Part shown: in pieces, positions 1 through 12,015 of the stretch
Layout of the letters: each line of letters starts with the position of its first letter
How positions within the stretch are numbered: position 1 is the first letter of the stretch
Source: an uncultured archaeon
GTDB taxonomy: Archaea; Asgardarchaeota; Lokiarchaeia; Sigyniarchaeales; SOKP01
DNA: 46,337 nt
NCBI GenBank assembly: GCA_964632315.1
Contig: CAZWEM010000039.1
Location: 1 to 46,337, forward strand
Direction of reading: 5' to 3'
The notes under the pieces: generated by a model
Database searches by the model: none
Seen by the model: only the letters and a program-made list of their open reading frames with translations
Told to the model about the DNA's origin: nothing
Position numbers and translations under genes: made by a program

Positions 1-693
1 AATTCCATCAATCTCTAATAGGTTGTTTAATTCATCATCATAAATGGCTCCAATAGTACATGCTGCTAATCCTAATGCTTCAGCTGTCAAGTAAAAATTC
101 TGACCAATGTGCCCTACATCCATGTAAATATATCTATAACATCTTTGGAGGTATTTCCATTTCGATCTTTCGATTATTGCCGTCCAGATAAATGTAATAG
201 CGGAATCATACACCATTTTTTGATCTAAACACCCTCGCATCGCTTCTGCTCGAAAGTCCCCAGTTTTTAAACATTCAATACTATGGTCTTTGATGTTATA
301 ATGGTATATTCCAGGTTCAATAGTTTCAACATTGTTCAAAATGATATAGCTTTCGATTGGAAATAGTCCTCCTGCAGAGGGGACGGTACGAAAAGCGTAT
401 TGGGGATATATCCTAGTTATTCCTGTTATTCCAAATATTAAACTACTAAGTTCATTGATATCGAGTGGTTCTCTGCTAAAATTCCTCAAGGATTTTCTGT
501 TCTTTAATACTTCCCAGAAATTCAATTCATTGAAAACCGGAGTAGGTAGTTGAATTATAGGTTTAACATTTGGATACGATTTATACATTTTAGGTTTCGA
601 CTCCCAATCTAAAAAGTGGCGAGGGAGCTCATTTCGAACATATTTGGACTTAGCTTGGAAATTGTCTCCATAATTCTCGATAGTATTATTCAT
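1..693 (-). CDS. SagB/ThcOx-family nitroreductase-like dehydrogenase; 3' end runs off the window
   Basis: Not in the ORF track. My translation from ATG 693 gives MNNTIENYGDNFQAK...NRKSLRNFS...FRTVPSAGGLFPIE...PGIYHY...RSKWKYLQRCYRYIYMDVGHIGQNFYL, typical SagB-type motifs, and is open to position 1. Confidence 0.9.
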   Translation of the reverse strand, partial: MNNTIENYGDNFQAKSKYVRNELPRHFLDWESKPKMYKSYPNVKPIIQLPTPVFNELNFWEVLKNRKSLRNFSREPLDINELSSLIFGITGITRIYPQYAFRTVPSAGGLFPIESYIILNNVETIEPGIYHYNIKDHSIECLKTGDFRAEAMRGCLDQKMVYDSAITFIWTAIIERSKWKYLQRCYRYIYMDVGHIGQNFYLTAEALGLAACTIGAIYDDELNNLLEIDGI

Positions 694-2147: not shown

Positions 2148-2387
2148 TTACTTTACAGCCTCAAAATATATGTACCACTGTTCATCATCTTCGAGATATT
2201 CTGTTCCTAAGTGCTTATGCTTTGTTTGTTTTTTTAAATCTCTCGGAACACTCTCGGACGCTGGCTTATAGTCTGTGATTACCTTTAAAACAGTACCTGG
2301 TCGCATTTTCATTAACTGTTTTTTAGTTTTTAATGCGGGTACTGGGCAGATTAAGCCACAGCAATTTAATTCTTCATCATATTTCAT
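2148..2387 (-). CDS. tusA: TusA/SirA-family sulfur carrier (last gene of Hdr cluster 1)
   Basis: LNCCGLICPVP (CPxP motif), GTVLKVITD; AAGGAG RBS upstream. Confidence 0.9.
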   Translation of the reverse strand: MKYDEELNCCGLICPVPALKTKKQLMKMRPGTVLKVITDYKPASESVPRDLKKQTKHKHLGTEYLEDDEQWYIYFEAVK

Positions 2388-2429: not shown

Positions 2430-4898
2430 TTAATCACATATTACTGAAAATAAGGGTTCGTCCATATTTTCTTCCGCTTTCATCTCTAATTGCATTAATT
2501 GAACCAACCGAAGCGCTTCGTACCTAACTTTTTTCGAATCAATTCCAGTTCTCTTTGCTATACTACTGATAGTAGAAGGCCCTTGGACATTGATATAATC
2601 CAATACCTGTTGTCTTGGAGTTTTCTCAAAAGTCATCAATTCTCTCTTTGACTTAAGATTAATGGCAGTTTTAAGTTGTTCTTCGTTCACTTCTCCTTGC
2701 TCAAATAGTCCTTTACCCATAGCTTGTTCGATAAGTTGTTTACCGCGATCAGTCCACACTACAACAGTAGTGAAACCTTTCTTTGAGCCGACTTCTCCTG
2801 CAGTTATGTCAGAATAAATCGCGGGAAAATCTTGACAATGAGAACAGAAATGATTGCAACTCAAACACCTTCTTGCCTCTTGTAGAGCCATATCTTCGTT
2901 CAATACCCTATCAATCTCGTCAAATGACCAATTTATCTCCTCAGTTGCGTCTTCTAATGATTCTGGTTTTAAAGAGTAATCTTTAGGAGGCTTTCTAGGT
3001 CCACTGAAAAATGCATTTGCTCGTTTATATCTCCCATCTGCTAAGTCTTCTCCCTTTAGATACCTATCAATCGATATTGCTGCTTCTTTTCCGTGAGAGA
3101 TTGCAGCAATGGCTACGGCTTTTGAATTGCTGACGATATCTCCGCCGGCAAAAACTCCTGGTATGTTTGTTTCAAATGTAGTCTCGTCTATTTTGATCTT
3201 GTTTCGCTCTTTTTCTAAGTCACTGTTTGTTGCAGCATCAATTTGATTAAAATCAACTGCTTGACCAACAGCTATAACTATATTGTCCACGGGGATTTCA
3301 TAGTCAGTATCTTCAACTTTATTCAATGGTTTTCTTCCGTTCTCATCCGGCGTTCCCCATTCGATGTTGTAACAATTCAGTACTAACTTGCCTTCTTTAT
3401 TCTGAGTGATTTTAGCAGTGGAACTCTTGAAGTGATATTGAATGAACTCCATTTCACTTTCGGGGATTTCCCTTAGAACTAATTCTAATTCTTTTTCAGA
3501 CATTATATCTACTAAGTGTACTTTCTCAGCGCCTAGTCTTAAGGCTGTTTGAGCAACATCTACTGCAACAGGTCCTCCTCCGATTACACCAATGGATTTT
3601 CCTTTAAATTCTTCTTTATTTTCCCAATATCGATATTTTCTGTCCATTAAGAAATTTATTGCGACGAATACATTTGGTAGATCTTCTCCTTCTAAATGTA
3701 AGGTTCGAGGCTTATATTGCCCAGTAGCTATGAATACAGCTTCAAATGCGTTGTTTTTTAAATCTTCTATCGTCATATCAGGACCTAATGGTTTGTTTAG
3801 TTCTACTTCAATTCCGGATTCTATGATTTTTTGAACATCGTAATCTAATACATAGTTGGGCAATCTAAATTGTGGAACTCCAAATCGTAACATGCCACCA
3901 AGCTTATCGGTTTTTTCAAATATCGTAGGAGCGTATCCCCGTTTCCTTAAGAAAAAAGCAGCGGTTAGACCTGCAGGACCAGAACCTACAATAGCCACCT
4001 TCTTTGCGTTCTTTCTTAATTTTGGTGTCTTTTTTGAACTCTTTTTTGCTTGTTCAATCTCCCATTCTGTTACAAATTTCTTTAACTCCCGAATTGCAAC
4101 AGGATGGTCGTCCCCTATTAAAGTGCAGCCAAACTCACACTCATTTGTACAAATTCTACCACAAATAGAAGGAAGTGGATTGCTTTCTCTTATTAAGTTC
4201 ACTGCTTCTTGATATTTACCTTCACGTATCAATGAAATATACCCTTGAGCGTTAACGCCCGAGGGACAGTTATTACAGCAGGGTGAACATACTAAACCTT
4301 TATCTGTTGCTTCGGTTCGAATTTGTGAATTGCAAAATAGTCCAATTTTCAAGAGATCACGCTTCATTTCTTCTGCAATTTCGGCAGCTCCACGCATCTC
4401 ACACGGCACGCCGACAATTCCTATTTGATCAAATGTTTCACCTGTGAGTTCAACGAGTCGCTTTAAAACTCCTGATCTACCATAAACCACTCCCGCTTTC
4501 TGAACTACTTCCCTTGGATCGTTTACGATTTCGGCTATTGGTTTTTCTTCTTCTTCCTGTACCATGACGACATTCTTAAGGGTCTGATTTTCTAGTAATT
4601 CTTTAACGAAAGTAGTAACAAATCCTCCACTTGAAGCTTTAGCCTGAATCTCAGGATCTTTAGTTCTCAAGGAATATACCGCTAGGGGTTGCTTTTCTTT
4701 AAACTTCTTTTGAATTACTTGTGGGCATGTTTGATAACATTTTCCACAATCTTGGCCATCTCTCTCTAAGATACAATAATCTTTAAGAGTTGGGCGTCTT
4801 ACTTCCATTTCAATGTGCTTACAAGATCCAGCACATAGTCCACACCCTTGGCATAATCCCGCATCTACTATTTCAGATTTTAATAATGTAAAACTCAT
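2430..4898 (-). CDS. Ferredoxin-FrhB (FpoF-like) protein with an inserted GltD/NfnB-like FAD/NAD(P) oxidoreductase and a C-terminal winged helix
   Basis: N-terminal CQGCGLCAGSC/CGKCYQTCP; FrhB motifs SSGGFVT, GIVGVPC, IGLFC; GltD-like region CPSGVNAQGY, CGRICTNECE, VAIVGSGPAG, GGMLRFGVP, GVFAGGD, EARRCLSC; FrhB resumes with CSHCQDF..SDITAG.VGS..GFTTVVVWTDRG. Confidence 0.85.
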   Translation of the reverse strand: MSFTLLKSEIVDAGLCQGCGLCAGSCKHIEMEVRRPTLKDYCILERDGQDCGKCYQTCPQVIQKKFKEKQPLAVYSLRTKDPEIQAKASSGGFVTTFVKELLENQTLKNVVMVQEEEEKPIAEIVNDPREVVQKAGVVYGRSGVLKRLVELTGETFDQIGIVGVPCEMRGAAEIAEEMKRDLLKIGLFCNSQIRTEATDKGLVCSPCCNNCPSGVNAQGYISLIREGKYQEAVNLIRESNPLPSICGRICTNECEFGCTLIGDDHPVAIRELKKFVTEWEIEQAKKSSKKTPKLRKNAKKVAIVGSGPAGLTAAFFLRKRGYAPTIFEKTDKLGGMLRFGVPQFRLPNYVLDYDVQKIIESGIEVELNKPLGPDMTIEDLKNNAFEAVFIATGQYKPRTLHLEGEDLPNVFVAINFLMDRKYRYWENKEEFKGKSIGVIGGGPVAVDVAQTALRLGAEKVHLVDIMSEKELELVLREIPESEMEFIQYHFKSSTAKITQNKEGKLVLNCYNIEWGTPDENGRKPLNKVEDTDYEIPVDNIVIAVGQAVDFNQIDAATNSDLEKERNKIKIDETTFETNIPGVFAGGDIVSNSKAVAIAAISHGKEAAISIDRYLKGEDLADGRYKRANAFFSGPRKPPKDYSLKPESLEDATEEINWSFDEIDRVLNEDMALQEARRCLSCNHFCSHCQDFPAIYSDITAGEVGSKKGFTTVVVWTDRGKQLIEQAMGKGLFEQGEVNEEQLKTAINLKSKRELMTFEKTPRQQVLDYINVQGPSTISSIAKRTGIDSKKVRYEALRLVQLMQLEMKAEENMDEPLFSVICD

Positions 4899-4900
4899 GT

Positions 4901-6136
4901 TTATCCCTCTTTTATTTTAATTTCTTTTACAATACCCGTTGAATCAATCGTAAATTCAACTGAGCCGTTTTTATAAGTTCCCTCAACCACATCAAAAACG
5001 TGGGTTTTATATTGTTCAAAATTATCTTTATCGTTAATTTGTGTCTTGAACCCTCCATAATATAGATTAGATAAGTTCATGTTTCCCGCTATTTTTCTAA
5101 TATTATCGGTGACTTCTTTGTATTTTTTTGGATCTTTATTTTCAATGGCTTCTGTTAGCTCCGATTCTAAATTCAGTAAATTCTTTCTATATTGTTTAGT
5201 GGTTTCACTCACATCGATATTATTTGCTTGTTCGTAGGTTTCAATAATTTTAAGCGTTAGAGTTATTGAATGATCTCCACCTAATAAACCTGAAATTAAG
5301 GGCAACTCTTCAATTAATCTCCCCATAAATACATCTTCTAATAAGCTTCCTGATGAGGTTAACCTCCCTTTAGGTAAACCTGATGTGGGAAGTGTAAATC
5401 TAAAGAAATTTCCCAATACGTCTGGTAAGCTCTCTGTAATATCATCATCTCTATCTGCCAATTTATCTGTGGCTCCTTTCTCAGAATGTTCTGTGGCAAC
5501 TTCGATATTACCCATTAATGTACCAAACATGCCTAGCATTCGAACTCCTGAGCGTTCAATCGTTGGTTTACAGCCACGACACGGAGTATCATAGTCTATA
5601 CATCGTTCTTTACATTCTTTAGCAATAAAACCATTACAAAGATATCCAAGATCGTTAAAACAAGTCTCTTCGTCATCTAATTCGATTTGACGCTTAACTT
5701 GTTCTAAGTAATCACAAGTTTTCCGACGACCACATACCGTGCATAAATTTTTCAATTTAGGTAATTCTTCACCTTTAATCTCAGATTGAAGTTCTTCAAT
5801 CTCACCTAAACAACCATGAACATTTATCACACCGTCGACTATACCTTGTAAAGGCGTCACTTCATGACCTCGTTGATTTGATAAGGCAAAGACTCCTCCT
5901 GTGGTCGTACAATCTCCATAAGCAATCATCTTCGTTGAATTTACTTTTATCTTGTTCAAAATCTCCTTATCATCTGGTAATAAATAACCCGTGATTACAG
6001 AGACATCTGCTTTTTGCTCTTTCCAATTTTTAGGATCAGAAACAAATTCTACTTTATAATCGGAATCACCTTTCAATAATATGCTTTCGTTAAAGCATTT
6101 ATTGCATCCGTTAAATTGAAAGACTTTAACATCCAT
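4901..6136 (-). CDS. MvhG/VhuG-like hydrogenase small subunit with a ~145-aa C-terminal extension resembling a degenerate large-subunit fragment
   Basis: GCNKC, YGDCTTTGG, HGC, LCTVC, CFNDLGYLCNG, PCRGC and FFRFTLP are MvhG-type motifs; extension covers residues ~265-411. Confidence 0.8.
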   Translation of the reverse strand: MDVKVFQFNGCNKCFNESILLKGDSDYKVEFVSDPKNWKEQKADVSVITGYLLPDDKEILNKIKVNSTKMIAYGDCTTTGGVFALSNQRGHEVTPLQGIVDGVINVHGCLGEIEELQSEIKGEELPKLKNLCTVCGRRKTCDYLEQVKRQIELDDEETCFNDLGYLCNGFIAKECKERCIDYDTPCRGCKPTIERSGVRMLGMFGTLMGNIEVATEHSEKGATDKLADRDDDITESLPDVLGNFFRFTLPTSGLPKGRLTSSGSLLEDVFMGRLIEELPLISGLLGGDHSITLTLKIIETYEQANNIDVSETTKQYRKNLLNLESELTEAIENKDPKKYKEVTDNIRKIAGNMNLSNLYYGGFKTQINDKDNFEQYKTHVFDVVEGTYKNGSVEFTIDSTGIVKEIKIKEG

Positions 6137-6584
6137 CTTTAACTGTCCCCTCCTCTCTTATTGCTGTAGCTAAACGCTCTACTAAATCTTCAAAATCTCC
6201 GACCGCAGTTTCTCCTTCTCCTGCTCGTGCAGTATATTGATTTACAAACTGATCGCTGTATCCTAATTCTTTGAATACTTTTTTCAGAAGTTTAATTCTG
6301 TGCATCGAAAGAATATTACCATTAAAAAAGTGGCAAGCACCTATACAACAACCTATACAGGCTACAGCATCAGCACCATTATCAATTGCGTCCATTATTT
6401 GAATCGGGCCAACTTGTCCCGTGCATTGAACTCTAACAATACGTATAGCTGGATTATAGGCCATTCGGGCTACACCAGCTGTATTTGCTGATCCTTGACC
6501 GCATTCGTTGCACATGAATACCACAATATTTTCCATTTTCTCGAGCACTTCAGGCTCAATAACTTCACACTCTATTTCAGTCAT
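6126..6584 (-). CDS. mvhD: MvhD-like [2Fe-2S] adaptor subunit
   Basis: FMCNECG..SANTAG, IRIVRVQCTG, GADAV, GCCIGACHF..GN. Start moved to ATG 6584, which follows GGAGGTG and overlaps the hdrA stop. Confidence 0.88.
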   Translation of the reverse strand: MTEIECEVIEPEVLEKMENIVVFMCNECGQGSANTAGVARMAYNPAIRIVRVQCTGQVGPIQIMDAIDNGADAVACIGCCIGACHFFNGNILSMHRIKLLKKVFKELGYSDQFVNQYTARAGEGETAVGDFEDLVERLATAIREEGTVKDGC

Positions 6585-8607
6585 CTGCACATACACCTCC
6601 ACCGCCTGATACGGCGATTATTTCATCTAATAATTGTTCATCACTAAAGTTTAGCAATTGAATTGCTCCTGTAGGACATGCAGGCATGCACATACCACAA
6701 GATTTACACGCAATTTCGTTAATCATGGGTGTTCCATCATCATTCATTTGAATAGCTGCAGGAGAACACACAGTTTTACATAATCCGCATCTAACGCATA
6801 AATCTAAATCTACGGATGGAACCAACATTTCCTTCTCAATGTATCCTTTTACTAATGGAGCAGCAGCAATCGCTGCAGCGCTTCCTGCCTGAGCAACTGA
6901 CTCCGAAATATCTTTAGGTCCTTGAATCGCTCCTGCTAAAAAGATACCGCCTTTACTACTTAAAGTAGGGTTCATTTTTATGTGGAATTCTTTAAGAAAT
7001 CCTTCTTTAGATCGCAATACTTGAAGTTTTGATCCTAAAGGACCTATTCCCTCAGGTGGAACCATTGCAGCAGAAAGTACGACTAAATCTCCTTTAAGCA
7101 GTAAAGGTGTTTGACTTAGAGTATCTTCAACGCTCACAATTAACTCTCCCGAGACTGGGTCTTTAATGATTTCTGAAGGCCTCCCTCTAATGAAACGCAC
7201 TCCAACTTCTTGAGCAGACTTGTAGAGCTCCTCAAAATTCAATCCAGGAGTCCTAACGTCGATATAACATATGGTAACATTTGAGTTAGGATACATTTCT
7301 TTAATAATTCTAGCATTTTTAACTGCAAATTTACAGCACACGCCAGTACAATATTTATTCCCTACCTGATCGTTTCTGCTTCCGACGCATTGGATCATTA
7401 CCACGTTCTTTGGTATTTTTCCATCCGATGGTCGTAAAACTTGACTATTCGTAAGTGATCCCGGAGCTAGCATTCGTTCTACTTGAAGTTGTGTTAAAAC
7501 GTTTTCATATCCTTCTTGTTTATAATGATATGGTTCAATCTCTGAAGGGTCATATTCATCGTATCCTACAGCCACTACTATAGAGCCTACTTTAAATCTT
7601 TTAGTTTCTGGTTGCATTGAAAAATCAACGGCTTGAACTGGGCACACGTTAACGCAAGTATTACATTCAATACAATCCTTTTTTGATCGAACATAAGTTG
7701 CTGGAATAGCTTGCGGATAAGCTTTATAAATAGCGTGTCTCATTGACATTCCTGAATCCCACTCACTGGGAACTTCAACCGGACAATTAGCTGCACATTC
7801 TCCGCACGAAGTACAATTATCTTTAACATATCGTGGCTTGATTTCTACTTCCACCTCAAAATTGCCCATTGAACCCTCAACTTCTTTTATCTGTGCATTC
7901 GTATAAAGTTCGATTAATGGATGGTTCGCAACTCCATTAGTAAGGGGTGAAATTGAACATTGTGGGCATTCCAAAGTGGGAAATGTTTTATTTAATTGAG
8001 TCATGTGTCCTCCTATCGTTGATTTTCGCTCTATAAGGTAGACCGGGATTCCTAATTCCGCTAGATCGTTAGATGCACGAAGCCCAGCAATCCCTGCACC
8101 AATTACCAGAGCTGCTTTTGTAGTGGATATCTTACGTGTTTCTACATCTTGTAATTTTCTCGCTCTATTAACTCCAGCCTCAATTAATCGCTTTGCCTTT
8201 AGTGTAGCTTTTTCTTTCTCCTTTTGATGCACCCAACTGTCAAATTCTCGTATATTTACTTGCTGGTGACGATGTTTGTTTAATCCCATTTCTTGGATAG
8301 TATTAGCGAATGTTCTCCCATGTTGATTTTTTGAACACGAAGCCACCACTGTCCTATTAACTCCTAGCTCTTCAATCGAATCCTTCAGCATTTGTACTCC
8401 TGGCTTACTGCACATGAACATGTAATGTTCTGCTTTTACTACATTTGGCAACGTTGAGGCATATTTCGCAACTTCTTCCACATCTACAGTTCCAGCAATG
8501 TTATGGCCACAATGACATACAAACACTCCGATTCTAGGTTCCTCCGATTTTTCTTCTGTTTCGCCTACTTTTTCGGTACTTTTTACTTTTTGCTCTTTAA
8601 TTGTCAT
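6577..8607 (-). CDS. hdrA: Heterodisulfide reductase subunit A
   Basis: IGVFVCHCGHNIAG, GAGIAG, IGGHMTQLNKTFPTLEC, inserted and C-terminal ferredoxin motifs, IQCVGSR, YCTGVCC, GPKDI. Start ATG 8607 after GAGGAGG. Confidence 0.97.
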   Translation of the reverse strand: MTIKEQKVKSTEKVGETEEKSEEPRIGVFVCHCGHNIAGTVDVEEVAKYASTLPNVVKAEHYMFMCSKPGVQMLKDSIEELGVNRTVVASCSKNQHGRTFANTIQEMGLNKHRHQQVNIREFDSWVHQKEKEKATLKAKRLIEAGVNRARKLQDVETRKISTTKAALVIGAGIAGLRASNDLAELGIPVYLIERKSTIGGHMTQLNKTFPTLECPQCSISPLTNGVANHPLIELYTNAQIKEVEGSMGNFEVEVEIKPRYVKDNCTSCGECAANCPVEVPSEWDSGMSMRHAIYKAYPQAIPATYVRSKKDCIECNTCVNVCPVQAVDFSMQPETKRFKVGSIVVAVGYDEYDPSEIEPYHYKQEGYENVLTQLQVERMLAPGSLTNSQVLRPSDGKIPKNVVMIQCVGSRNDQVGNKYCTGVCCKFAVKNARIIKEMYPNSNVTICYIDVRTPGLNFEELYKSAQEVGVRFIRGRPSEIIKDPVSGELIVSVEDTLSQTPLLLKGDLVVLSAAMVPPEGIGPLGSKLQVLRSKEGFLKEFHIKMNPTLSSKGGIFLAGAIQGPKDISESVAQAGSAAAIAAAPLVKGYIEKEMLVPSVDLDLCVRCGLCKTVCSPAAIQMNDDGTPMINEIACKSCGMCMPACPTGAIQLLNFSDEQLLDEIIAVSGGGGVCADD

Positions 8608-8608
8608 T

Positions 8609-9523
8609 TTATAATGCCTCCTCTTGTTTAATTTCCTCTCCCTTAAACAGGTACTCACGACCCATCATTTGGTATTGAAGACCAACAAATTCTTGATCCA
8701 TGCCCATTGCATAAGCCGTTAGTTGAGAGAGATGAATGACTGGATAGTCATAATTGCATCCTCTATTTTTATTCAAATAGTCCTGTCCTGTCTCAAATTG
8801 AAGGTGACAGAAAGGACATATATCTAATATGAAGTCTGGCTTGACTTCGTCTATATTTTCCATTTTTTCTTCGAAGATTGTCATGCTTGAGGTACCATCA
8901 TAAGCCTTTACGCCTCCACCAGCCCCACAACACGTGAGTTGCTCCTTGAATCTAACTGATTGAACTCCTAATGCCTCAAGATAATCTTCGATGATTGTTG
9001 GTCCTTCAGAACTTTCAATTTCTCTAATTCTAGTTGGCTTTAAGAAGTGACATCCATAATGGATCGCTGCTCGAGCATTAATCTTCCGTACGATGTGGTC
9101 TTCAATTCCCCAAGGTCCAATCTCATATCCGAGTACCTCTGCGATATGTCGCACCGTGATGGTCCCTTTGAATTCATAATCACCAAGCAACTTTAGTTTT
9201 GCATTCACCAATTCGCGGTGTTCTTCATTTTCTTTCAAGTGCTTGTTAATTTCTTGAAGGGTTCCAAAACATCCATTACACACAGTTAAGATATCAGCAT
9301 CCAGTTGTTCTGCTATGCATAAATTACGAGCACCAGCTACCATCCAATCAACCTTGTTAAAGGATCGAAATACACCTGGAGCAGGACAACAACCCGCTCG
9401 TTCCATGTCTAATAATTCATATCCTAACTTTTCCATGACATATTTGGTAGCCTTCTCTATTTGCGGATATCTGTTTGGCATTATACAACCGAGAAAAAAT
9501 GCAAATGTTTGTTCTTTTACCAT
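8609..9523 (-). CDS. hdrB: Heterodisulfide reductase subunit B (two CCG domains)
   Basis: FLGCIMPNRYP, CCPAPG, CNGC, HYGCH, CCGAGGG, CPFCHLQF. Confidence 0.96.
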   Translation of the reverse strand: MVKEQTFAFFLGCIMPNRYPQIEKATKYVMEKLGYELLDMERAGCCPAPGVFRSFNKVDWMVAGARNLCIAEQLDADILTVCNGCFGTLQEINKHLKENEEHRELVNAKLKLLGDYEFKGTITVRHIAEVLGYEIGPWGIEDHIVRKINARAAIHYGCHFLKPTRIREIESSEGPTIIEDYLEALGVQSVRFKEQLTCCGAGGGVKAYDGTSSMTIFEEKMENIDEVKPDFILDICPFCHLQFETGQDYLNKNRGCNYDYPVIHLSQLTAYAMGMDQEFVGLQYQMMGREYLFKGEEIKQEEAL

Positions 9524-9535
9524 TTTTTAGACCTC

Positions 9536-10093
9536 CTATTTCTCCTCTTCTTCCTCTTCTTCTACGGGAGGAAGTTCAAACATGTATTTTTCAAAATTTT
9601 TTAAATCTTTATCTTTCCCTTCTTCCTTGAATTTATACAAGGTTGGGGGAAGTTCTTCTAAACCTAACTCAACTCTTCGTTTTCTAACCTCGTCATTGAT
9701 CGGAACGGCATGACCCGTGTTTTTAAGATATCCAACCACTGCTCTATGATTAGGTGAAATGTTTCCTAATTTTGTGGCATAGTTTCTTAACTCCATGATC
9801 ACGTCCGTTGGACGCACGTCACGTGGACAGCGTTCATAACACTGATAACATGTAGTGCATAACCAAATGTCGGGGTCTTTAAGAACCGATAAATCTCCAA
9901 GAACTACTTTTCTAATGATATTTCGAGTTTTCAAGGCAGTCCAACGTCCTGATTCACAAGACGCCGTACACGTACCGCATTGGATGCACTGCCAAATATT
10001 GGTTCTTCTCTCAATCGAATTGAAGAATTCTTGGTCGAAATCATCATCAACCTTGAATTCCTTATGAGGTTCTTTTTCTTTAACGTCAGACAT
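9536..10093 (-). CDS. hdrC: Heterodisulfide reductase subunit C
   Basis: CIQCGTCTASC, IWLCTTCYQCYERCPR, TGHAVPIN, LGLEELPPT. Confidence 0.95.
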   Translation of the reverse strand: MSDVKEKEPHKEFKVDDDFDQEFFNSIERRTNIWQCIQCGTCTASCESGRWTALKTRNIIRKVVLGDLSVLKDPDIWLCTTCYQCYERCPRDVRPTDVIMELRNYATKLGNISPNHRAVVGYLKNTGHAVPINDEVRKRRVELGLEELPPTLYKFKEEGKDKDLKNFEKYMFELPPVEEEEEEEK

Positions 10094-10155: not shown

Positions 10156-10584
10156 TTATAATGATACTATTTGTCCACCATCGCTCATTTCTAAGAATGA
10201 GGCGGCACCAACAGGTTCTTCAACAAAGTCATATAAGTCTTCTTTCTTAATTCCCATTAAGTCCATGGTCATTTGACATGGGTAAAGTTTCATGTTACCG
10301 CTCTCTACGGCTTCTTTAATCATGCCCCATGGATCCTCGATTCCAAACTTGGCCATCCTTTTCAGAAAGATCTTTGCACCCATGCCTTTCATTGGAAACG
10401 GCATCCCTGCTACTTTTGGCTTAAACTTTTTAGTTAGCAAATTTAGACCCCAGAATGTAAAAAAGAAGTTCATTTTAATATCCATTGCATCCCCTGTGGT
10501 TCCAAGGATCATCATCATTCCGAATTTCTCGAATGACTTGTCCTTTACAATAAAATTTACTGTTTCTACCATATTTTCCACCAT
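10156..10584 (-). CDS. DsrE2/DrsE-like sulfurtransferase
   Basis: FFTFWGL, YPCQMTMDLMG, VGAASFL. Confidence 0.9.
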   Translation of the reverse strand: MVENMVETVNFIVKDKSFEKFGMMMILGTTGDAMDIKMNFFFTFWGLNLLTKKFKPKVAGMPFPMKGMGAKIFLKRMAKFGIEDPWGMIKEAVESGNMKLYPCQMTMDLMGIKKEDLYDFVEEPVGAASFLEMSDGGQIVSL

Positions 10585-10669
10585 TTTTTATTATTTTTTT
10601 TATTTTATTCAATTTTTTAGCTTTTAGCTAAGCATAATTTTGTAAAAAAATTTTAATTTTAATCTTGGA

Positions 10670-11017
10670 TTATATCCAAGAGATTATTTTTTTAGAATTT
10701 TCTAATGCATCAACAAGCTCACTATATTCAGTGGGCTTCACTTTCTCGTGTAAATCTTCTAATGAAATGCCTCGTGCTTTCAAGTCTGGAGTTAGCGCAA
10801 ATACAGAAATATCTAGATTTAATAGTTCTTGATTTGCTAAGGGAATTTTTCCCTTCTTGTTATATCCAATCACGCCATCATGAATCAATGCCACTCCTAC
10901 TTTATCACTTTTCCTCACTTGAGTAGTAATTAGCGGTAACAACCTTTTCATTTGATTCCCTACCACTTCACTAAATCCAAAAAGATACAAGATGTCTAAT
11001 TCTTCCACTTTTCTCAT
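10670..11017 (-). CDS. DsrH/TusB-like protein
   Basis: LIHDGV, DLKARGI, EYSELVD..IISW. Start is ATG 11017 or GTG 11008, after AAGGAG. Confidence 0.8.
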   Translation of the reverse strand: MRKVEELDILYLFGFSEVVGNQMKRLLPLITTQVRKSDKVGVALIHDGVIGYNKKGKIPLANQELLNLDISVFALTPDLKARGISLEDLHEKVKPTEYSELVDALENSKKIISWI

Positions 11018-11022
11018 CTCCT

Positions 11023-11400
11023 TTAAAATCGAAAGCAAGTATCTGCTTGATCGATAAATTCAACAATTTCATCCATAGATACAACCTTTAAATTCTCATA
11101 TTCGATTAAATCGTCTCTTGTTAATCCCGCTACTTCCAAAGCAGTATCTAAAACGTATAAATCCAAGTCCGATAAGTCTGCCATTTCAATGACTTCATCA
11201 ACCGGATCTACCCCGACCGCAGTAGGTTCAGCATTTTTATTCAATAAATACACGGAATCCCCAGTAAACACCACTTTACATTCAATAAACTCTCCAAGTG
11301 CAACAAAACCAGAACCAATGCGGATCGCTTCTGCCGCTGAATTTTTTCCAACAGGGGATTGCTCGGTAACAATTACAACAGATTCTACCATTTCTTTCAC
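11023..11400 (-). CDS. DsrF/TusC-like protein
   Basis: QSPVG...AEAIR, VVFTGDSVY, GLTRDDLI; lies between the dsrE-like and dsrH-like genes. Confidence 0.8.
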   Translation of the reverse strand: MKEMVESVVIVTEQSPVGKNSAAEAIRIGSGFVALGEFIECKVVFTGDSVYLLNKNAEPTAVGVDPVDEVIEMADLSDLDLYVLDTALEVAGLTRDDLIEYENLKVVSMDEIVEFIDQADTCFRF

Positions 11401-11771
11401 GCTCCTGAACCAAATACGATTATTTTATCAGATTCTACCGACCAATTTGAAAAGTCACCTAATCCTTCTTCTGTGGCACATTCAATGAAATCATCTTCCT
11501 TTAATCCAGTTAAACTCACCCATGTGCTACAACCTGAAACAGGAACATCATTTTGAGAAGCGAAATCATGTATTTTCTTCGGAACATCCCTAATTGATGA
11601 GCCGCAACTAATATCCTTCTTTAGATTGTATACACCGGAACCAAAGAAGAAAAATCCCTTGATCTGATGCCCTTTAGCAATTAAAGCTTTTGAAAGCTCG
11701 ATTAGGGAATCAGTCGCCTGAAACTTGTAAGGCTCAGTGCTAATAAAGAACGAATACGTAGTCATCGACAA
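11397..11771 (-). CDS. DsrE/TusD-like sulfurtransferase
   Basis: TEPY, GHQIKGFFFFGSGVYN, candidate catalytic Cys in VSGCSTW, GLGDF...SDKIIVF. Confidence 0.85.
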   Translation of the reverse strand: MSMTTYSFFISTEPYKFQATDSLIELSKALIAKGHQIKGFFFFGSGVYNLKKDISCGSSIRDVPKKIHDFASQNDVPVSGCSTWVSLTGLKEDDFIECATEEGLGDFSNWSVESDKIIVFGSGA

Positions 11772-11790
11772 ATTCCTCCTTCTTTATTGC

Positions 11791-12015
11791 TTAATTCTTC
11801 TTGATTAAGAAAGTGACTTTTGCATCCTCTTCGTTAGTATTAACTAACTCGTCGCCAGTTTTGCTTAAAAGAGCAGGCACATCTTTCAAAGCCCCCTTAT
11901 CATCAACGATAAGCTCTAAGGTTTGACCAGAAGCCATTTTTTTCAGCTCTTTCTTGGTTAAAAGCACTGGCATTGGGCATTTCTTACCCATCGCATCAAG
12001 TGTGATATCAGCCAT
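11791..12015 (-). CDS. tusA: TusA-family sulfur carrier (first gene of Hdr cluster 1)
   Basis: TLDAMGKKCPMPVL, GQTLELIVDD..A..DVP. Confidence 0.93.
   Translation of the reverse strand: MADITLDAMGKKCPMPVLLTKKELKKMASGQTLELIVDDKGALKDVPALLSKTGDELVNTNEEDAKVTFLIKKN

Follow-up and report, generated by a model that had tools for sequence, protein, structure and literature searches.

An MvhG-type small subunit fused to a nickel-less relic of the [NiFe]-hydrogenase large subunit in an Asgard Hdr operon: a probable pseudo-hydrogenase module

The window analysed here, that is, the whole stretch of 46,337 nucleotides, is a single contig (C39) of a 4.45-Mb archaeal genome, and the closest relatives of the proteins that it encodes are labelled Promethearchaeota or Lokiarchaeota in public records. 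It contains a tight minus-strand operon with the gene order hdrC-hdrB-hdrA-mvhD-fusion-frhB-like, and the fifth of these genes encodes the protein of 411 amino acids, P0001, that is the subject of this report. We found that P0001 combines a hydrogenase small subunit of the MvhG type with a miniature, cysteine-free homologue of the [NiFe]-hydrogenase large subunit. A preliminary description of the DNA had read the protein as such a fusion, with the large-subunit remnant apparently circularly permuted; profile and fold evidence agree on the nickel-less large-subunit homologue attached to MvhG, and the permutation did not hold. P0001 is probably a pseudo-hydrogenase module, in which the small subunit joined to the nickel-less relic would serve as a noncatalytic electron wire. 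The features of the fusion gene are as follows.

4901..6136, minus strand: fusion gene for P0001, 411 amino acids, MvhG-type small subunit with a mini large-subunit relic (open reading frame (ORF) translation; stop codon at 4901-4903)
5762..6136, minus strand: residues 1-125, flavodoxin-like N-terminal domain with the proximal-cluster cysteines C11, C14, C76 and C109 (Oxidored_q6)
5372..5761, minus strand: residues 126-255, MvhG-type domain with eight cysteines for the medial and distal [4Fe-4S] clusters and FFRFTLP at its end
4904..5371, minus strand: residues 256-411, the extension, which is a miniature [NiFe] large-subunit core without Cys (AlphaFold2 (AF2) model, VIA-align, Foldseek)
5165..5344, minus strand: residues 265-324, equivalent to large-subunit residues ~39-98, the FEKFLxGRxxEExPxI-RxCGxC helix pair and the next helix (hidden Markov model (HMM), hhalign)
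5270..5287, minus strand: residues 284-289, LLGGDH, the former L1 motif RxCGxC (hhalign register)
5048..5101, minus strand: residues 346-363, IRKIAGNMNLSNLYYGGF, equivalent to the large-subunit helix end and GG..HP..GG loop, with HP deleted
4913..4990, minus strand: residues 383-408, VVEGTYKNGSVEFTIDSTGIVKEIKI, equivalent to the C-terminal sheet from EAPRG, large-subunit residues ~358-383

Nucleotides 4901-5344 encode residues 265-411 of P0001 together with the stop codon.

The only Pfam match in P0001 was Oxidored_q6 (residues 22-109, E 2.5e-11). Among sequences of the Protein Data Bank (PDB), the chains of VhuG (9sw2_E, E 8e-16) and MvhG (5odc_E, E 4e-12) covered residues 92-255, and these alignments stopped at residue 255, at the motif FFRFTLPTSGLP, in agreement with the earlier placement of the end of MvhG at FFRFTLP. 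In the same PDB comparison the small subunit was closer in sequence to MvhG than to FrhG. A Foldseek search with the full-length model returned only small subunits, with MvhG (5odi_E and 5odc_E) as the best matches. The NCBIfam model VhuG scored P0001 at 40.8 bits against an equivalog cut-off of 450, and P0001 is therefore a divergent group 3c small subunit. The proximal-cluster cysteines C11, C14, C76 and C109 were retained in 33-34 of 34 sequences, as were the medial and distal cysteines C132, C135, C159, C167, C175, C179, C186 and C189. AF2 confidence was low for residues 126-255, as expected because the clusters are absent from the model. Given that all 12 iron-sulfur (FeS) cysteines are kept, the three-cluster wire appears to be intact and a role in electron transfer is reasonable. 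Residues 1-255 constitute an MvhG-type (group 3c) small subunit that would still bind three [4Fe-4S] clusters.

The relationship of the extension to large subunits was visible only with custom profiles and not in single-sequence searches. An HMM constructed from 16 extension sequences and run against all PDB sequences gave FrhA of Methanosarcina barkeri as the top match (E 2e-5), and 13 of its 17 best matches were large subunits of group 3 or 4, always with extension residues 11-74 placed on residues ~40-106. Alignment of the extension with 20 Asgard large subunits by hhalign yielded an E value of 2e-6 (probability 89.5%), and a second hhalign run gave 5e-6. The resemblance to the FEKFL...RICGIC pattern that had been noted by eye is thus borne out by both profile methods, which also supply the profile comparison with large subunits proposed at that time. 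When the extension profile was run against the 12,402 ORFs of the genome, both large subunits encoded there came out as the top non-self matches (E 2e-4 and 9e-4), and BLASTP against a complete one of these, P0129, aligned extension residues 11-104 with residues 40-129 (E 0.006). A reverse search of the loci with a large-subunit profile produced weak matches on the extension. The stretch from LEDVFMGRLIEELPLISGLLGGDH to RKNLL is therefore homologous, well above chance, to large-subunit residues ~40-100, and the hhalign register shows that structural residues which are invariant or nearly so in large subunits are retained in it: E277/E51, P279/P53, G287/G61, E302/E76 and R317/R91 (extension/large subunit), as well as I281.

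Single-sequence searches were negative. The Pfam large-subunit family PF00374 did not match the extension even at E 1, phmmer with the single extension sequence found no large subunit in the PDB, and with the same query against 1.84 billion representatives it recovered just 20 family members or fragments; large subunits were absent, as were fused forms of intermediate or greater length. With the profile, about 18 of 400 Asgard genomes gave additional matches (E ~1e-6, profile positions ~9-74), mostly in ORFs of 434-461 amino acids, a length typical of large subunits. The third match in the genome of the window was an ORF of 305 amino acids (C72:2522-3436, minus strand; E 0.056, profile positions 34-80), which could be either a chance match or another large-subunit-like relic.

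To describe the fold, we relied on an AF2 model of the extension alone, which was predicted with high confidence (predicted local distance difference test score, pLDDT, 93.9; predicted template modelling score, pTM, 0.88) and consists of five helices followed by a three-stranded sheet. In a Foldseek search with this model, large subunits and their complex I homologues occupied nearly all of the top ~25 places, the best being 6qgr_A (template modelling score 0.61), and no match had an E value of <1e-3. VIA-align was run against 48,161 representative chains. Its top 15 chains were all [NiFe] large subunits or homologues of the NuoD, MbsL or HycE type, with Z scores of 9.5-13.5, 143-154 of 154 residues aligned and a root-mean-square deviation of 2.2-3.0 Å; the next best matches were generic four-helix bundles at Z 5.4. 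For a helical protein, Z is not enough by itself, and the fold assignment rests on this gap in Z together with the fact that the sheet is covered. The predicted model of the extension has the core fold of the large subunit, comprising both helical bundle and sheet. The match is collinear: model residues 6..154 lie on residues 40..402 of 437 in FrhA and 38..398 of 447 in MvhA, and the last strands therefore fall at residues ~370-400, on the sheet that follows EAPRG.

The middle of the extension is placed by this structural match. Residues 346-363 gave a weak HMM stretch on FrhA 144-176, and IAGNMNLSN..GGF occupies the position of the GG..HP..GG loop. The earlier identification of a GGR.IHP...GG segment accordingly holds as to location, by collinear structure and the weak HMM match, but is not significant as sequence taken alone. 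In the C-terminal sheet, the Glu of EAPRG is apparently kept as E385, and ungapped extrapolation of the hhalign register would place Tyr388 at the position of the catalytic-pocket Arg. The relic is thus made up of large-subunit residues ~40-100, ~140-170 and ~355-400; both termini are gone, and two large internal deletions separate the three segments. It has lost the N-terminal hairpin, the middle domain of ~185 residues, the C-terminal DPCxxC tail, and every nickel-binding and catalytic residue.

Loss of the nickel site is evident from the register of the former L1 motif, in which R58-I-C60-G61-L-C63 is aligned with L284-L-G286-G287-D-H289. The Arg and both Cys are lost, with G286 and H289 at the Cys positions, and replacement of the nickel-binding RxCGxC motif, which the preliminary description had reported, is confirmed in this register. 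The one Gly of the motif remains as G287, which is invariant in the fusion family. Residues 256-411 contain no Cys in P0001 or in any of the Loki-type homologues; the extension was Cys-free in 31 of 38 homologues, and the Cys residues of the other seven were unconserved, those placed being outside the L1 positions. The L2 motif DPCxxC(xxH), correctly recorded as missing in the earlier reading, is absent from P0001, whose C-terminus is ...KIKEG. The protein ends at least 35 residues short of the expected position of DPCxxC, the structural match stopping at ~400 of 437-447 residues. At ~150 amino acids, the extension also falls outside the length of the large-subunit family (~380-600 amino acids).

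The relic is nevertheless well conserved. Over 32 full-length homologues, mean identity was 65% in the extension, between the 59% of the N-terminal domain and the 74% of the FeS domain. Even at 31% identity, sixteen positions of the extension show no variation; the invariant ones within residues 346-363 are G351, L355, S356, N357 and G362. On this conservation, the extension is under purifying selection and is not a decaying tail.

The neighbouring genes, all on the minus strand, are as follows.

6126..6602, minus strand: mvhD, [2Fe-2S] connector (Pfam FlpD, E 5e-31; NCBIfam VhuD, E 2e-25)
6577..8658, minus strand: hdrA (Pfam: pyridine-nucleotide-disulphide fold and 4Fe-4S domains)
8609..9523, minus strand: hdrB (Pfam: two CCG domains)
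9536..10093, minus strand: hdrC (Pfam: Fer4 dicluster)
2430..4898, minus strand: FrhB-like protein, 822 amino acids, into which a GltD/NfnB-like NAD(P)H flavoenzyme module is inserted (Pfam and NCBIfam)
10156-12015, minus strand: genes for DsrE2, a DsrH/DsrEFH-like protein, two DsrE-like proteins and TusA, upstream of the hdr operon
2148-2387, minus strand: second tusA, downstream of the hdr operon

The 3' end of mvhD overlaps the start of the fusion gene, and the gene for the FrhB-like protein starts 2 nucleotides past the fusion gene stop codon. Pfam divides the FrhB-like protein into FrhB_FdhB_N (residues 74-146), Fer4_20 and Pyr_redox_2 (199-603), and FrhB_FdhB_C (668-739). This protein of 822 amino acids is presumably the electron-input (or electron-output) partner of the fusion protein.

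We collected 365 homologues of P0001, the majority of which have 403-421 amino acids; identity was 70-95% within records of the Lokiarchaeia type. Precomputed annotation assigned PF28234 to one of these homologues alone, P0035 (413 amino acids). Of the 400 genomes of the phylum covered by a profile scan, about 80 had the full extension, in ORFs of ~411-452 amino acids (a few frames had 163-477), and the carriers belong to the same family as the genome studied here, to three other families of the same order and to a separate family (f31). Gene order was compared in related loci (L015-L019). The order hdrC-hdrB-hdrA-mvhD-fusion-frhB/gltD was held in the three other families of the same order. 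The metagenome loci L018 and L019, with 34-37% identity, showed the same order, but with a plain FrhB of 345-389 amino acids in place of the FrhB/GltD protein; close homologues of the L018 FrhB are labelled Thorarchaeota in NCBI records, and one of these two loci is Thor-type. Genes for TusA and DsrE proteins adjoin the equivalent operons in both (L018:3438-4201; L019:3334-4069 and 10399-10629), and as judged from gene content the link between this type of Hdr and TusA/DsrE sulfur carriers is conserved.

An adjacent catalytic large subunit, which is normal for group 3c small subunits, is absent from the locus, and the fused relic stands in its place. When the 46-kb window and six related loci were searched with the large-subunit profile, no gene for a large subunit was detected, so that these hdrCBA-mvhD loci are without mvhA, as the preliminary description had expected of homologues. 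The same genome does encode two true [NiFe] large subunits, on contigs C7 and C11, each beside its own small subunit and Hdr-like genes.

Several features of these separate hydrogenase loci deserve description. On C7, an HdrA-like ORF of 853 amino acids (C7:68706-71267, minus strand) lies directly upstream of a canonical pair of small and large subunits and may represent the true hydrogenase-linked Hdr of the genome. On C11 (L001, 37711-40947), the large subunit P0127 (435 amino acids, L001:547-1854) ends in ...LPDPWIK without DPCxxC. About 50 nucleotides downstream of its gene (L001 ~440-520, minus strand) is a short ORF reading ...VRCFDC-TGA-LSCAAH..., which looks like a split C-terminal peptide of the VhuU type with an in-frame UGA (selenocysteine) at the position of a nickel ligand; together with P0127 it would form a split [NiFeSe] hydrogenase of an Asgard archaeon. 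The small subunit beside P0127, P0128 (409 amino acids, L001:1866-3095, minus strand), has two blocks of the form CxxC...C...GCxxxC...PCxGC, and so apparently has two copies of the medial/distal cluster domain; it may bind five clusters. The C11 hydrogenase genes are followed by HdrC- and HdrB-like genes (C11:36581-37973).

We compared the module with known systems. The MvhAGD-HdrABC and VhuAGD-Hdr complexes (group 3c; 5ODC, 9SW2) share with it the MvhG/VhuG part with FFRFTLP and 12 cluster cysteines as well as adjacent mvhD and hdrABC genes, and MvhA (5odc_F) matched the extension at Z 12.3 over 148 residues. Compared with MvhAGD-HdrABC, however, the large subunit has shrunk here from ~450 residues to ~150 and lacks nickel and iron ligands, the relic is fused at the C-terminus of the small subunit, and a gene of the FrhB type comes next. 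The F420-reducing hydrogenase FrhAGB (6QGR/6QGT, 4OMF) provides the best match of the extension, FrhA (E 2e-5, Z 13.5), and has the same trio, in which a small subunit and a large-subunit homologue are accompanied by an FrhB-like flavoprotein; in contrast to FrhAGB, the present module has no active site, is tied to MvhD and Hdr, and has an FrhB with a GltD-like NAD(P)H insert. The core fold is also shared with NuoD/Nqo4/49-kDa subunits of complex I (7zm7_C, 8qby_D, 7q5y_B, 7wfg_H and 7p61_C; Z 9.5-11.3) and with MbsL of MBS (6u8y_l; Z 10.9). These proteins, which descend from group 4, have likewise lost the nickel-binding Cys and been retained beside an FeS subunit of the NuoB type, but they are separate membrane-complex subunits of ~370-590 residues that have gained a quinone or sulfur site, whereas the relic of P0001 has ~150 residues, is soluble, occurs in a group 3 context and is fused to its small subunit.

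The closest functional precedent, by analogy, is Elp-Hdr of Methanothermobacter marburgensis (ElpABC-HdrABC), in which ElpA, an FdhA without molybdopterin, lies beside an FdhB-like F420H2 oxidase and a homologue of MvhD (PMC12350162). Elp, which has been studied by biochemistry and cryo-electron microscopy, replaces Mvh under nickel limitation and provides a nickel-independent electron input to Hdr (PMC12350162). Both systems keep a cofactor-stripped catalytic subunit as a scaffold beside an FrhB/FdhB-like flavoprotein and MvhD. The relic described here derives from a [NiFe] large subunit rather than from FdhA, is far smaller and is fused to the FeS subunit. Given that the FrhB-like and MvhD parts are present and the FdhA scaffold is not, the fusion module is an analogue of donor modules of the Elp type and not a member of that group.

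Methanogens have the gene order mvhD-mvhG-mvhA. In-frame fusion of a decayed mvhA to the neighbouring mvhG would give the arrangement of the fusion gene. In the [NiFe] heterodimer, the helical bundle that holds the NiFe site lies at the interface with the small subunit, and on the basis of this architecture the relic probably sits at the face of the proximal cluster. It has probably been kept as a structural partner of the small subunit, shielding the face beside that cluster, and the complex would have no H2 activity. The three FeS clusters would form a wire between the FrhB-type flavoprotein and the [2Fe-2S] cluster of MvhD, and beyond it HdrA's bifurcating FAD. Of the ideas put forward in the preliminary description, loss of the catalytic site is now supported by the lost ligands, and the electron wire is reasonable given the retained cysteines. 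The flavoprotein would be an FrhB-like form with a GltD/NfnB-like NAD(P)H insert in this genome and a plain FrhB in Thor-type relatives. Electron exchange with NAD(P)H or with a deazaflavin or flavin substrate would replace H2, and bifurcation and confurcation would both be possible. The TusA/DsrE carriers encoded alongside may take part in the handling of a thiol/disulfide substrate. A complex prediction for a Thor-type fusion protein and the plain FrhB encoded next to it gave a score of 0.01 (mark 0.32), which counts neither for nor against this pairing.

Other explanations of the extension were considered. That it is an unrelated helical bundle with a chance resemblance might be argued from the absence of large subunits in the single-sequence phmmer search of 1.84 billion representatives, from the lack of a PF00374 match and of any Foldseek E value of <1e-3, and from the fact that helical bundles often reach middling Z scores. 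Four independent profile tests nevertheless share one register, the fold match spans sheet as well as helices with 15 matches from one superfamily standing 4-8 Z units above four-helix bundles, and the extension occurs in the context of a hydrogenase small subunit; chance resemblance is scarcely credible. The preliminary description had assigned the last ~30 residues to the N-terminal TRVEG (TRxEGH) hairpin of the large subunit and had suggested that the relic is circularly permuted. The pattern VEG...V.F.ID..G.V does resemble both large-subunit hairpins by eye, and hhalign found a faint match of the last strands to the N-terminal region (9 columns, score 8.6, E 0.17), but the local score for the C-terminal hairpin after EAPRG was 18.8 (E 4e-4), and BLASTP, the HMM and hhalign all set these strands (FTIDSTGIVKEIKI) on large-subunit residues 369-394. 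The sequential structural alignment moreover puts 148 of 149 model residues on the ranges 40..402 (FrhA) and 38..398 (MvhA), and a collinear deletion model requires no rearrangement. Circular permutation, which we judge very improbable, was rejected on the basis of the collinear structural match and the better score of the C-terminal hairpin.

The protein might also belong to a true hydrogenase, drawing on a full-length large subunit from another locus of the genome and delivering electrons from H2 to Hdr. Two [NiFe] large subunits are available on other contigs of the genome, and the small-subunit part retains all cluster ligands. Each real large subunit, however, adjoins a small subunit and Hdr-like genes of its own. 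The relic derives from the part that is buried at the centre of the heterodimer and, given the known architecture, would be expected on that very face of the small subunit; it is under purifying selection, and the gene for the FrhB-type donor is conserved directly downstream. A role in H2 oxidation by this route is highly unlikely. We regard as unlikely, though less so, that the relic has acquired a new job beyond capping, such as a docking platform for the FrhB-like protein or a site for TusA/DsrE or another ligand in the former NiFe cavity. The 16 residues invariant at 31-92% identity, which include R273, E276, E277, E299, E302, R317, D398 and the NLSN loop, perhaps exceed the needs of a passive cap, and FrhB-like and TusA/DsrE genes co-occur in distant loci, but several of these residues are also invariant in real large subunits and may be purely structural.

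We thus favour P0001 as a pseudo-hydrogenase module that probably acts as a noncatalytic electron wire, and the following observations weigh against this interpretation. Sequence significance is confined to the first ~60 residues of the extension, the remainder resting on predicted structure, and the fusion is found in only those ~80 of 400 genomes of the phylum. The donor, furthermore, is not invariant. In L015, from a complete, single-contig genome of the same order, the FrhB/GltD gene (L015:8865-9293, minus strand, G032:C1) is reduced to 142 amino acids, which correspond to the ferredoxin-like residues 1-80 and the winged-helix tail (762-817) of the 822-amino-acid protein, the flavoenzyme body being gone. 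The homologue in L017 contains an in-frame TAA (10886-10888, G027:C175), across which tblastn aligns residues 1-822 of the FrhB/GltD protein at 52% identity; the gene may be split or a pseudogene, or the TAA may be a sequencing error.

In public annotation, proteins of the P0001 type are named F420-reducing hydrogenase gamma subunit, NuoB family protein or hypothetical, and the relic is unrecognised. As a consequence of these names, the operon can be miscounted as a hydrogenase despite having no catalytic subunit. A full-text literature search, with most subscription journals outside its coverage, found no description of a fusion of MvhG with a large-subunit relic. Nickel-less descendants of the large subunit and cofactor-less scaffolds that feed Hdr are already known; a soluble group 3 relic of ~150 residues fused to the small subunit is not. 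MvhADG-HdrABC was named as the only hydrogenase of the cultured strain MK-D1 (PMC7015854). Models of Asgard physiology and of eukaryogenesis give a central place to H2 metabolism and in this respect depend on the annotation of Mvh-Hdr.

The relic delimits what is still kept of the large subunit beside the small one. The fusion would represent a second, independent route from a [NiFe] hydrogenase to a non-hydrogenase redox module, by extreme miniaturisation and fusion, the first being that from group 4 to complex I and MBS, and would constitute a hydrogenase-derived counterpart to the nickel-independent input of Elp-Hdr. We put forward tentatively, and as the less probable outcome, that a whole branch of the Asgard genes annotated as MvhADG-HdrABC encodes no hydrogenase but a hydrogenase-derived complex without nickel that bifurcates electrons between a flavoprotein, ferredoxin and a disulfide (or protein persulfide), with the relic serving as the docking site for a donor of the FrhB type or for TusA/DsrE. 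If so, no smaller functional descendant of the [NiFe] large subunit would be known than the relic, and the module would be a soluble parallel of the transition from hydrogenase to complex I.

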